From Curvularia clavata (Eukaryota), in NCBI GenBank assembly GCA_023920165.1, contig CP089275.1, forward strand, positions 1,178,001 to 1,242,000: a DNA stretch of 64,000 bases, in the 5' to 3' direction. The notes beneath the pieces were generated by a model, which was not told the DNA's origin, searched no databases, and was given only the letters and a program-made list of their open reading frames with translations. Positions 55,737 through 61,769 of the stretch are shown in pieces. The translations under genes and the position numbers were made by a program. The number at the start of each line of letters is the position of its first letter. The first letter of the stretch is position 1.

Positions 55737-57890
55737 TCAACGCCGATCGATCAGCAGCGCCCAAGGGGGACACTAAGACCTCGCCCCTTTCTGTTGTCGG
55801 CACAAGAGTATACCCTTCGCTCCAAGTTCCCTGTCCTGAAGATTCGTAAACAGTGCCTGGATACATTAATGACCATTACTCAAAGGTGCAAATAACATAC
55901 GTTGCAGGTGAAGCAACTCTCCCGCATCCCATTCTAACTGCTTATAAGTATCATGTGTCCTTCGCCGTCTCCACCACCGGACTAGAGGTTCGATTAGCAA
56001 GGCAGTTAGAATGAGAAAACATCCTAGGGCAAGTGTCAAAGCTAGACCTAAAACGCTGAATGAAACTGCGTCCGGATGATAGATGAGTCGAGATTTGCAT
56101 AAATTCTGCCAATTGGGATCTTCCATCTGCTGCCTGTAAGGCATGAATTCATCGCCGAGGACCATTCCTTCGATAAATTCGTGTTGCATAGCAGCCATCT
56201 GAATGTGGAACCAATTCTCCAATTCAATTTCCGTTTGGTTGGACTCCACTTTTAGGGACATAGTGCCGGCACCCTCGATTAGCTTGTCCTGGGCAAGCAT
56301 TGCCGTGCCGCCAATAGAGCGGAGAATCGAATGGTAGTTGAAGTTGAGTGCAAGTCCAGCGATTAGGGAAACTGTAGCTTGCTGAATCGGATTGAATCCT
56401 ATATTTTGTTTTACTTGGAAGTCAATTGTTTTGGGTATTTGTTCAACGATATTCAGGAGTGCATCTTGCCGGGTGCATTGCTTTGAGGTAGGGTTGCAGA
56501 ACTGATATCGCTCAGAACAAGCAAACGCCGAAACAGGTTGGGCTTTCCATGACCCTTGAGCACCTAGTGGTAAGTTGTTACATCCGCAATCTTCTTTAGA
56601 TACGAATCCCCTTGTACCAAGGAGAATGTCGTTGGATGGTTCCATGTATAGTGCGTTGGTATTCAAGACCGCTACTGTTACATCGGCATCCCGCAACCGC
56701 AACTCCTCGACCGGTTGTACCACGGTATAATTCATGTCGCTCAAAGTCTTGTTCAGGGCGGATTCGTTGACAGTAGCTCCTGGAAATGATGGATACACCC
56801 TGCCAAACAGTAAGCGAGGCCATGCAAAAAAGAAAAGAAAAAAAGGAATACTGACGAGAACCGGTACGGCTGCAAGTTTGCTAAGCTGCTTCTGAGCTTA
56901 TCGTATGGAATAGAAATCCCAGGTATGGTATAGTTCAAATCCAAGTAGTTATAATTCCGATAGAGCTCATCCGTGAAGTTCGCTGGTCGTTCCGTAGCGT
57001 ATTTGGGGTCTTCGGTGAATGGTAACGGAGTACAAACTGAGACTTTTCTATATTCCACGCGGTCTCCGACGCGAGAATTGATGCCGAAATGCTCATGTGA
57101 GTTCAGCATCTCTGTCTGCATCTTGATAGTCCCTCTCGTTGAGTTTCTGCAAAGAGAGGGTGGGTTGAAGGGACACGTAACACCTATTTCTAGTTTCGTT
57201 GGAAGCTTGCTAACTGGAAGACGTCGGCAAGTCGAGTCATTATCCGATCCACCCCTTATGTAGCAACTACGAACATATTCCGCGCTCCGTTGCAGCTGTC
57301 TGCGATGTTCAGACTGTATCTTATATTGCATAGTCAATGGTACTTCCTCAATGAAAAATCCGCAGTCCATCGATCTAAGGAGTGCGCTGTTTCCGACAGA
57401 AGCAATTTGGACTGACACAATGGAGGCAATTGTGAAACATGCGATATAGGCAAAAGCGAGAAGTACAAAAGGCAGTTGGCGACGAACTGCGCGTCTCGTG
57501 TTCGATTTCCAGGAATAGCCGAGCTTAATCAGATACCAGAGGGTGGACACCGGGGTTTGAGCGTTACGTAGCACGACCTGACGTTGATGATACAGTCCAT
57601 CTCTTCCTTTGTTTGTGGAGAGCAGTTGGTGTATCACAAAGCAGACGATATCTGTGACTTGTTATTTATCCCGCTCGTTAGAGTCCAGGCTACGTACTCC
57701 AGGCATATCCGCCAACAACCGAAACGAAAAGGGTAATCATGACCAACAAAACTTTGGATTCATTTGACGGTAATGTCAGCGTTGCCGCAAGTGCACCGTT
57801 CTTCGACCAGTTGTTCCAGAACCCAACTTTGTACGGCTTCTTGTCCCAGTGGAACCAGTCTTCTTCAAAGTCGACCAGCCTCGCCGTCAT
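55737..57890 (-). CDS. Fungal membrane glycoprotein of unknown function, 4 exons
   Basis: GFWNNWS...ATLTLP...LLVMITLFVSVVGG, DGLYHQRQVVLRN, YVRSCY, NSHEHFGIN, CSERYQFCNP, SFSVLGL plus TM helix, and EWDAGELLHLQR. Three predicted GT-AG introns keep the frame. Confidence 0.8.
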
Positions 57891-59368
57891 TGCGCAGGAT
57901 AATCCGTAGAAACCAATATATAGGTATTGTCTTACTTCTCGCACTCAGCATAAAATTATAATGCAAGCAAAGACAAACTACACGCAGCGCAACTTGCTGA
58001 TTTAATGCATCTTGGATCACACAGCCCAAGTGTTCGCAACTTTTGTGAGACACATTGCCTCAAAACAGGTGACGATAAAAGTGATCTGTCCTTTATTCAG
58101 CTCACCTCTAGCTGAAGCTCCCGTGGCCGCAGCGGCCTCTTGACCACGAGACTGGAGAGCCGTTGCCGCGCTAGTAAAACCAAAGATCAAGTTTCGTTTT
58201 CAGCTGGCATGGGCATGCTGTGCCGAAAAGTTTGGATTTCACATGTGGTTGGGGCTTGGTGGCCGGCCAAGATAGACTGTGTTTTGTGGGCGCTCACTGC
58301 CACGCCTCTGTTTTTCAGCACCGCCGCTGTCGAAAAAGCAGCCAAGAAGATAATACGCTAGTGGCTGGTGCGTGTGACTGCTTCGTGCTGCATCGTGCAT
58401 TATTGTTGGACAAACTGACTGATCTTCGAGGGACGCCTGATCGCTCACCTGGAATCAGACTTCTAACCACATGATTCAAGTCACGTGATTGACAGTATTA
58501 TACAACAAAAGAGTAGTTATCTCTAGATATAGAACTCTTTATCTCTTGGATGTGGGTGAGATTTTAGATGACTAGCCAACCCGTGTGACCGACAACCTAT
58601 GGGGTACATTACCCTATTATTGTAATACCGCCCACCTTCATGGCGAACTATGATAGAGCAGATGCAAACCAAACATCTCCTGAATTCGAAATTTGGTTTA
58701 GCAAATATCAGAATAATGCCTTGCAAATGCTAGCGATGAAGAGATTTAGCGATAAAAGTATATGCGATACCCAACCCAAACATAACGGGCAAAATCTCTG
58801 CGACTCAGCACATCCAGAAAGTCACAAGAGCATGGCTCATATTTGTACTGTACTTCGTAGCCCAACAGAGCTGGTCTGGTATGCCTTCTAGTAGAGGACA
58901 AGTGTAGAAAACGCAATGTTAGTTAGCACATTGCACCGTGACAATAGCATGGAGTATAGACTGGACGAATAGCCTTGAAACAAACAAAGCGCGAATTTAA
59001 AAGAATTCACGAATCGCATAGATGCGAAAGTCATTACGAACGCCAGCCATGCCATGAAGTCTTGGCATGACGCAGCCACTTGGTTCGGACCTCCGAGAAA
59101 TAATTTGGCGGGGCAGGCCCGAAGCGTAGATACGCAGGCAGACGCACCATCGCATGTACAACGATCCCCTCGTACCACAGCCACGTCAACTGTGCAGCAC
59201 GCTAGTCGCCCAAGAGATTCCCTATTTTCGCATACATCGTCTCTCTTCACCATAGGCCGAAAACACAAAGCCCATCGCCAACAGGCGCAGCAGGACAGGC
59301 CGTGGCGCAACGGCGAGAAAGGTCGCAAAGGTAGTGGCAAAGGCAAAGGACGCGGCAGACGAGGCAAA

Positions 59369-60691
<1,323 letters not shown>

Positions 60692-60901
60692 GTGATTGGT
60701 CGAATCGACGATTGGATAAGTGAACGAGTGAACAAATGAAAAGATGAAGATACGTGTGGTATGTGTATTGGATAAGGGTATATCGTCATAAATTACGGGT
60801 AACGATAAACATTGAGCTGCTTTTTGAGCAAGCGGTGCGTTTCTGCAGTTCTTAGCTGCAAATACGTTCCAAGGGTGGGGATGGTATATGTATTGGCGGC
60901 T

Positions 60902-61769
60902 TTAGTAGGTTGTTGTTTGCCGATCATCTAGGTGGCATAGTTAGCTAGCTTCATCTCCACTTTTGGACGAGATACCCAAACTCAAAGACATACAGTTTGC
61001 GCCCATTGCCTTTCTTAGCTTGAGCGTCACAGCCTCGGCATCCAAGTCCTTCTTGTCACCAGTCTGTATCTCGACGGCATATGTCCTGATAACCTGCTTG
61101 ACCTGCCCGCTCTGGAAGCTCATCTTGGCTTTGCGCATGACTTTGGTCTTGGGGCCTGTCACACAAGTGATGTCAATATTTATGTTCTCGCCATGAAACG
61201 TAGATCAATGTAGAACTGGAATGACGGAAAAGCAAAGTTTGGAATAAGACCAAGCCAGGACAACAGGGGGAGGGGTAATAAAAATTGCGTACCTTGCCAA
61301 ACGACAAAGGCAAACTTGACACGTTCGCTGTACTCATCATTTCCCAACTTCATACGCACATAAGCGTATGCTGCATCGTCCTCGTCGAGGCTTTCTGTCA
61401 TCTCAGCAATGTCTCCTGTACCAGTAGCCGCTAGCTTGAGGTTGTCTGAAGTTGCAGAAGCATACTATTAACATGAATTAGCGTTCTGAGTAAAGGGAAA
61501 AGCCCTATAAAACTCGTGATGTGCTTGCCGCAAGAGTCTCGTGACAAGACTACCAGAGCATTTCAAGGGGCAATACGACATGTGCAAATCCCTCCGCAGC
61601 AGCAACTCGTTCCACAAGCGTGACACAAGACATGTACCAGCAGATTGGGGTTACAGAGCTCGCCACATACCTTCAAGATCAGCCACGTTGTGTCCGATTT
61701 ATCCGAGCGCACATCTTCGTACGCCTGGGCGATATCAGGGTCGTTGAGGATATCGGCAGCAGCAGGCAT
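60902..61769 (-). CDS. Coactosin-like ADF-H actin-binding protein, 4 exons
   Basis: AYEDVRSDKSDTTWLILK/YAS, YAYVRMKLGNDEYSERVKFAFVVWQG, KVMRKAKMSFQ and LRKAMGANY/DRQTTTY*. Confidence 0.92.

Follow-up and report, generated by a model that had tools for sequence, protein, structure and literature searches.

A conserved AUA codon as a candidate start for a basic N-terminal extension of an Hst2-type sirtuin in Curvularia clavata and other filamentous ascomycetes

The window analysed here, a 64 000-nucleotide (nt) stretch of the Curvularia clavata genome (GenBank assembly GCA_023920165.1, contig CP089275.1, positions 1 178 001–1 242 000 of the forward strand), contains a Sir2-family gene that is annotated as a protein of 398 amino acids (aa) from the ATG at 59369–59371. 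It was found that a conserved ATA codon, embedded in cttcaccATAg, lies 117 nt upstream of this ATG in the same frame with no stop in between, on which the sequence and the list of open frames agreed. The 39 codons from the ATA up to the ATG, (M/I)GRKHKAHRQQAQQDRPWRNGEKGRKGSGKGKGRGRRGK, would add a basic, glycine-rich N-terminal extension; recounting of the translated residues gave 15 K/R and 9 G, as first reported. The original prediction, made from the letters of the window, had taken the ATA for a near-cognate start codon in a strong context, and this core claim was borne out by the conservation of the codon, its context, its frame and the encoded peptide. The ATA lies within the mature mRNA, as was observed in two studies. 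In our judgement it is likely that leaky scanning on this mRNA gives two proteins, a minor isoform that starts at the AUA and bears a basic, disordered extension, and a major AUG-started isoform with an N-myristoylation-type N-terminus. The same two-protein arrangement appears, by comparison of orthologues, to exist across much of Pezizomycotina. The features of the locus are collected in Table 1.

One metagenome scan supplied the related loci, its search patterns being derived from the catalytic core together with the MGQDES start. It matched 238 stretches, 142 of which were confirmed, and the best 80 were kept. An in-frame block of the I-G-R-K/R type was found in 75 of these 80 loci. Two more (L033 and L061) also carried the block in frame and stayed outside the count since a contig end cut their exon 1, and another (L022) was cut off before the block. 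Removal of nine identical copies left 66 loci, which together with the window made a set of 67 non-identical sequences. When lineage was tallied for the 66 loci by best match to 33 named proteins, which is a rough guide, the nearest named relative belonged to Pleosporales in 26 cases, to other Dothideomycetes in 26, to Leotiomycetes in 8, to Sordariomycetes in 4, and to Lecanoromycetes and Sareomycetes in 1 each; the window, which the searched database did not hold, stood outside this tally. In the 67-sequence set, the block read I-G-R-K/R-H/R-K/R and preceded an MGxxxS/T start in frame.

The first codon of the block was ATA in 66 of the 67 sequences and ATT in the remaining one (L066), while ATG was found at this position in none. 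As a control, the other Ile codons of exon 1 were counted in the same sequences, and they were ATC in 108, ATT in 36 and ATA in 36 cases (n = 180). The expected conservation of a near-cognate codon was thus seen against a background in which ATA is a minority choice. The context of the ATA could be compared in 65 sequences. A purine occupied position −3 in all of them (A in 55, G in 10), position −4 was C in 41 and A in 23, and position +4 was always G. The main ATG showed the same pattern, with C at −4 in 54, A at −3 in 65 and G at +4 in 65 of 65 sequences. Passages of PMC5487733 single out A at −3 and G at +4 as mattering most for starts in Pezizomycotina.

Downstream of the ATA, conservation followed a three-base periodicity, in which the Arg, Lys and His codons varied at synonymous sites. 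The third base of the Gly codon directly after the ATA was free (A 8, C 16, G 11, T 30). An in-frame stop inside the extension occurred in 1 of the 67 sequences, whereas the +2 frame was interrupted in 36 of 67; the +1 frame always held the TAG of aTAGg. The stop-free frame expected in orthologues was accordingly present in 66 of 67, despite extension lengths that ranged from 21 to 62 codons (median 31). Upstream of the ATA, 51 of the 67 sequences had an in-frame stop and no ATG between that stop and the ATA (stop at a median of 24 codons, minimum 8), and 16 of 67 had some in-frame ATG, at positions that were not conserved.

The ratio of nonsynonymous to synonymous substitution rates (dN/dS) was calculated from 31 independent pairs, chosen greedily with a proportion of synonymous differences (pS) in exon 1 of 0.10–0.70, after two sequences with stops (L065 and L060) had been dropped. 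It was 0.46 for the extension (bootstrap 0.36–0.59) and 0.35 for exon 1, and the same aligned extension nucleotides read off-frame gave 1.18 and 0.83; these values are rough, since many pairs were near saturation (pS 0.52, about 0.5). Together with the periodicity, this agreed with the synonymous-biased changes that had been anticipated after the ATA. By these comparisons, the extension is under purifying selection in the frame of the main open reading frame.

The extensions of the 67 sequences were composed of 45% K/R/H and 4% D/E, with almost no hydrophobic residues, and Trp was present in 32 of them. A Pfam search of the extension returned no family at an E-value of 0.1 or better. In an AlphaFold2 model of the Lophiotrema nucula orthologue P0070, built on a 48-row alignment, residues 1–32 had a predicted local distance difference test score (pLDDT) below 50 and no secondary structure. 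An extension that folds or docks on the catalytic domain was therefore not supported by this model, which does not contradict transient binding. A structured RNA or start-enhancing hairpin was also considered and rejected: the fold of 59240–59380 had −33.6 kcal/mol with z = +0.81, and 162 of 200 shuffles were as stable. The N-myristoylation pattern of PROSITE PS00008, G-{EDRKHPFYW}-x-x-[STAGCN]-{P}, was matched after the AUG-encoded Met in 65 of 67 sequences and after the ATA in none, because Arg follows Gly there. That MGxxxS fits the myristoylation consensus, as had been stated for the window, therefore extends to an MGxxxS/T motif kept in the same 65 sequences.

RNA coverage over 58400–60900 was inspected in four public runs (X1, X5, X6 and X14). 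In X1 (study P1), whose sequence was identical to that of the window, a contig covered 59160–59490 and continued into the gene with both introns removed. In X6 (study P3), from a close relative, the contig covered 59052–59490 and likewise ran onward with both introns removed. Both contigs were colinear through the ATA into exon 1, with no joint at 59255. Since these spliced contigs begin at 59160 and 59052, transcription starts upstream of the ATA and not downstream of 59252; the contig ends are not to be equated with transcript ends, and the RNA evidence for the leader comes from this species and one close relative. The X5 contig was spliced and began at exon 2, and its 12 loose letters agreed with the last bases of exon 1; the metatranscriptome X14 was uninformative on the leader, its coverage being restricted to 60100–60900. 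Ahead of 59160, the X1 contig opened with 21 loose letters, the last four being GGGG, for which the window had no match at ≤3 mismatches. They might be a library or template-switch remnant at a 5′ end, or an assembly artefact.

A separate observation concerns the X6 contig, which differed from the window at 0 of 439 nt in the leader and exon 1, at 8 of 330 nt in exon 2 and at 20 of 954 nt in exon 3 and the 3′ untranslated region. The eight differences in exon 2 all fell on third codon positions. This pattern would result from unusual constraint on the leader and exon 1, or from a chimeric contig assembled from two strains.

The block was also found in annotated proteins. Among 29 full-length Pleosporales orthologues, 28 were annotated from MG(Q/N/S), and the 29th, the Lophiotrema nucula protein P0070, which is labelled 'partial', begins with IGRKHKAHRQQ directly before MGN. 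A search with the leader open reading frame returned 25 longer proteins, at least 18 of them (Pleosporales) with the same block. In the alignment this block reads IGRKHKAHRQQAQQxKPWRNxEKGR...GK and stands immediately before MGQ or MGN. Residues N-terminal to its first Ile could not be aligned among Pleosporales, and the annotated ATGs were at unrelated positions. A profile search also detected the block in Dothideomycetes outside Pleosporales (Aureobasidium, Hortaea, Diplodia, Phyllosticta, Venturia and Meristemomyces); among Sordariomycetes it was present in Grosmannia, Trichoderma and Paramyrothecium.

Several deposited models fuse the sirtuin to unrelated upstream genes. This was the case for the Alternaria models P0127 and P0133–P0137 (668–738 aa). 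In P0127, from Alternaria ventricosa, the fusion junction falls exactly after the I codon, and the other Alternaria models have other junctions. The Hypocreales models P0194, P0197, P0199, P0201, P0202 and P0232 (527–644 aa) are upstream-gene fusions with the histone-fold domain PF00808, the domain of the fused Beauveria models (541–561 aa). In the Beauveria and Lecanicillium models, the upstream gene is spliced onto a G-R-R-R-R block. Such fusions are probably artefacts of a predictor that needs an ATG for an open frame without one.

From the conserved features and the place of the ATA in spliced mRNA, we infer the following course of initiation, isoform ratio, myristoylation and targeting. 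Scanning ribosomes would meet the AUA at 59252 first, in a context like that of an AUG, with a purine at −3 and G at +4. A minor share of them would initiate there, presumably with initiator Met-tRNA, giving a form with a 39-residue basic, glycine-rich and disordered extension. The remaining ribosomes would scan on to the AUG at 59369 and give the annotated 398-aa form with the MGQDES N-terminus. The two forms should differ in lipidation, because the myristoylation-type Gly is internal in the long form. A difference in location is likewise expected from the basic extension, and a nuclear or nucleolar pool would be likeliest, because the composition of the extension is unlike that of a mitochondrial presequence.

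The leader ahead of the ATA holds elements of its own, which bear on this proposal. The in-frame ATG at 59054, which had been offered as an alternative route to the extension, lies 2 nt inside the longest contig (X6) and would give a 105-residue extension. The ATG is real and its use is physically possible on the longest transcript, but the region 59054–59252 was not conserved as coding sequence: it could not be aligned upstream of the I, and a nucleotide element shared with relatives (near 59085–59116) was read in different frames. The leader element GTCTTGGCATGACGCAGCC, seen as runs of 11-mers common to 14 Pleosporales-like loci, contains an upstream ATG (uATG) that in these loci lies 126–185 nt before the ATA in varying frame relative to it. 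This uATG often opens an upstream open reading frame (uORF) of 11 codons (MTQxLRRTPE[IK]), which a 1-nt difference extends to 20 codons in the window. The element may represent a uORF conserved for regulation, or else a bZIP-type DNA site (TGACGCA). It was also considered whether a uORF stop on aTAGg could be the cause of the conservation, as with the uORF from 59154 in the window; this was rejected, an ATG-started uORF ending there in 9 of the 67 sequences.

Various observations weigh against initiation at the ATA or temper the case for it. In the window by itself, the open frame is not beyond chance. The frame that holds the ATA and the ATG is open from 58979 to 59566, another is open over 59256–59495, and one stop, at 59332–59334 within the extension, interrupts the third; the stretch is T-poor, and the significance of the open frame emerges only through comparison with other fungi. 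That comparison was itself tilted, as the query used to rank the top 80 loci included the extension and so favoured loci having it. Three kept loci depart from the pattern: L071 is frameshifted after IGRKHKSH, which puts its block out of frame; L079 lacks an I-G-R-K block; and in L065, which is nearest a Leotiomycetes protein, the extension becomes a uORF through a stop that lies three codons short of the ATG. These loci, like L060 with a stop within exon 1 (MGQE*), are single metagenome contigs in which sequencing error is possible. The ATA was never swapped for ATG, CTG or ACG, so that the strictness of the codon could reflect some other constraint. AUA is a moderately efficient near-cognate codon only. 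On long transcripts, the upstream AUGs at 59067 and 59154 and the in-frame AUG at 59054 would intercept scanning ribosomes. In-frame stops in the seven codons before the ATA numbered 0 of 469, compared with 3 of 469 and 10 of 469 in the other two frames; starting at codon −8 and going further upstream, the in-frame count was a normal 14 of 469. In Capnodiales/Dothideales-like loci (L031, L035, L040, L043, L045, L056, L044, L029, L037 and L036), a peptide-like motif [LF]-R-[STYF]-h-h-[AT]-[ATV] adjoins the ATA upstream, 8–12 codons before it. The motif is hydrophobic, its Arg codon varies as CGN, and ACG, ATT, CTG and GTG codons occur just upstream, which suggests that some lineages may use extra near-cognate starts slightly upstream, as cpc-1 does with several. 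Support for initiation at the AUA is drawn from comparison and RNA contigs.

These points lead to the explanation that the extension is translated from elsewhere, with the ATA as an internal Ile codon, starting either at the AUG at 59054 on long transcripts or at lineage-specific AUG or near-cognate codons from a few to a dozen codons upstream. The start of the X6 contig just ahead of that AUG, the in-frame ATGs upstream of the ATA in 16 sequences, the peptide-like conservation with nearby near-cognate codons in some non-Pleosporales loci and the lack of in-frame stops directly before the ATA are all in its favour. We nevertheless regard it as unlikely, since 51 of the 67 sequences have an upstream stop and no ATG, with the stop only 8 codons away in 4 of 67, and since the Pleosporales sequence upstream of the I neither aligns nor keeps a frame for the shared nucleotide element. 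An internal Ile would also hardly be ATA in 66 of 67 cases, or carry a start-like −3/+4 context. Much less probable is that ATAG|G is a 3′ splice acceptor by which an upstream exon with its own AUG is joined to G-R-K-H-K. The conserved block does begin exactly after ATAG, and predictors joined upstream genes here in P0127 and onto G-R-R-R-R in Beauveria and Lecanicillium. Such joints involve different unrelated genes, however, and move elsewhere in the other Alternaria models, and an invariant first A with a purine at −3 is not a feature of acceptors. In Curvularia this acceptor was rejected on two grounds, namely the RNA of two studies, which is colinear across 59255 with both real introns removed, and the nearest upstream gene (55866–57661), which lies on the opposite strand. 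Overall, we hold the splice explanation to be highly improbable.

It is also very unlikely, in our view, that the stretch is mainly a translational control element, a conserved upstream coding region that tunes the main AUG and yields an extended protein without function. A conserved near-cognate start followed by a conserved nascent peptide is the look of such elements, as known from work on antizyme inhibitor, and the conserved uATG element further upstream in Pleosporales-like loci and the Trp in 32 of 67 extensions would suit one. A purely regulatory uORF need not fuse in frame, though, and 66 of 67 sequences do so whatever the length of the extension, the sole stop-bearing sequence (L065) being the exception. 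That the stretch is a non-coding leader conserved as DNA or RNA (a promoter, initiator or protein-binding site), with an open frame that follows from T-poor composition, is extremely improbable. Two of the three frames are nearly open in the window alone, and the leader is purine-rich. The three-base periodicity, the free third positions, the dN/dS below both off-frame values and the excess of stops in the +2 frame speak against it, as do the lack of a stable fold and the position of the ATA inside the mRNA. Initiation at the AUA by a minority of ribosomes accordingly remains the reading that we prefer.

Table 1. Features of the sirtuin gene and its leader, in window coordinates
Feature	Position	Strand	Basis
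Transcribed leader before the ATA	59052..59251	+	Spliced contig starts: X6 at 59052, X1 at 59160
In-frame upstream ATG	59054..59056	+	Sequence; position and downstream peptide not conserved
Conserved leader element GTCTTGGCATGACGCAGCC, with uATG 59067 and 20-codon uORF (59067–59129)	59059..59129	+	Shared 11-mers
33-codon uORF, TAG stop overlapping ATA-G	59154..59255	+	Sequence, open frames; not conserved
Kozak-type context ttcacc ATA g	59246..59255	+	Window sequence; −3/+4 comparison over 65 sequences
ATA, candidate near-cognate start codon	59252..59254	+	ATA 66, ATT 1 among 67 sequences
Candidate N-terminal extension, 39 codons, (M/I)GRKHKAHRQQAQQDRPWRNGEKGRKGSGKGKGRGRRGK	59252..59368	+	In-frame conservation in annotated proteins and metagenome loci
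Annotated ATG and MGQDES, N-myristoylation-type N-terminus	59369..59386	+	P0001 start; pattern match
Exon 1	59369..59491	+	RNA joint 59490/59566, cut moved by 1, GT..AG, X1 and X6; protein alignment
Intron 1, 75 nt	59492..59566	+	Spliced out in RNA contigs X1 and X6; X5 loose letters are the exon 1 end
Exon 2, Sir2 catalytic core motif	59567..59895	+	Open frames, alignment, RNA; PF02146
Intron 2, 51 nt	59896..59946	+	Spliced out in X1, X5 and X6
Exon 3 to TGA stop	59947..60691	+	Sequence, open frames, 100% identity to P0001

The gene model was based on the sequence, the open frames and two GT..AG joints in the RNA contigs. The product of exon 3 was 100% identical to yc1106_02241 (P0001, 398 aa), in which the Sir2 domain PF02146 covered residues 43–226 (E 1.2e-59). 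QNIDCLER(E) and a 16-residue catalytic-core motif were unchanged in the alignment of 29 orthologues. Assignment to the Hst2/SIRT2 type rests on the source names of orthologues (Hst2, sirtuin-2). The X6 RNA contig, 3760 nt in length, extended ~2 kb beyond 60900 over minus-strand open reading frames (60941–61464), which suggests a convergent neighbour whose transcript abuts or overlaps the 3′ untranslated region of the sirtuin gene.

Non-AUG N-terminal extensions are already known in fungi. As described in passages of PMC5487733, the cpc-1 gene of Neurospora crassa and its Pezizomycotina homologues have conserved N-terminal extensions initiated at near-cognate codons. The Hst2 gene resembles cpc-1, as portrayed there, in that an AUG-less extension is kept in frame, that near-cognate codons flanked by A at −3 and G at +4 have been conserved across Pezizomycotina, that purifying selection acts in the main frame, and that uORFs occur in the same leader. 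For cpc-1, conservation of several near-cognate codons (ACG, AUU, CUG) was described, along with extensions that measure ~180 aa, with in vitro and in vivo support (same passages of PMC5487733). Unlike cpc-1, the Hst2 gene has one codon, nearly always AUA, with an extension of 21–62 codons that is known here from sequence and RNA contigs. A second parallel is found in passages of PMC7049704, where single-copy aminoacyl-tRNA synthetases of Cryptococcus gain targeting sequences from AUU or ACG starts, and where dual localisation by leaky scanning is reported for Neurospora. In these cases, as proposed here for Hst2, a weak start located upstream in a strong context lets one mRNA serve two N-termini, and localisation changes accordingly. 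The synthetase extensions are predicted mitochondrial presequences according to the same passages, whereas the Hst2 extension is K/R/G-rich and unlike a presequence. The main texts of PMC5487733 and PMC7049704 mention no sirtuin, and that of PMC7049704 does not mention HST2. In full-text searches on Hst2 and sirtuins, supplements and subscription journals being outside their coverage, neither a non-AUG extension nor N-myristoylation was found described for Hst2/SIRT2. Against the known cases, that of Hst2 stands out by its phylogenetic depth, by an AUA that is nearly invariant and by an AUG partner of the myristoylation type.

The window gene shares the Sir2-family catalytic core PF02146 with Hst2, SIRT2 and the Neurospora sirtuin NST-2. 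In the case of human SIRT2, the isoforms are produced by splicing or through the use of alternative AUGs. In the passages of PMC2596135 on NST-2, this protein is closest to Hst2p and has a partial role in telomeric silencing, with one telomere affected, and its yeast and human relatives (Hst2, SIRT2) are cytosolic. By analogy, the telomere phenotype of NST-2 would fit a nuclear pool of an Hst2-type sirtuin. It was also noted that in the nst-2 RIP1 allele, used as a null, the predicted start ATG is changed to ATA (passages of PMC2596135). If near-cognate starts are used on the nst-2 mRNA, this allele might be an incomplete null.

A bolder extension of the proposal is that the choice of start codon forms an ancient switch that was in place before Dothideomycetes and Sordariomycetes diverged. 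Two exclusive N-termini would then direct the enzyme either to a myristoylated and thus lipid-anchored cytoplasmic or membrane form, or to a chromatin or nucleolar form, or one in which the histone-tail-like G/K/R extension acts as a pseudo-substrate. The AUA and the Pleosporales-like uORF would set the ratio of the two, which would respond to start-codon stringency and reinitiation. We consider this switch doubtful, though possible. If true, it would link translational stress signalling to chromatin deacetylation.

The deposited models of these genes conflict with each other, as they lack the extension, reach to arbitrary upstream ATGs, are labelled 'partial' or are fused to unrelated genes. 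A non-AUG start, if true, would settle these conflicts. The gene would also provide a clear example in which one near-invariant AUA start has been kept across classes of filamentous ascomycetes, useful for the study of how weak starts are tuned. A conserved basic second isoform, if it exists, would offer a simple explanation for the chromatin phenotype of NST-2 despite the cytoplasmic reputation of Hst2/SIRT2-type sirtuins.

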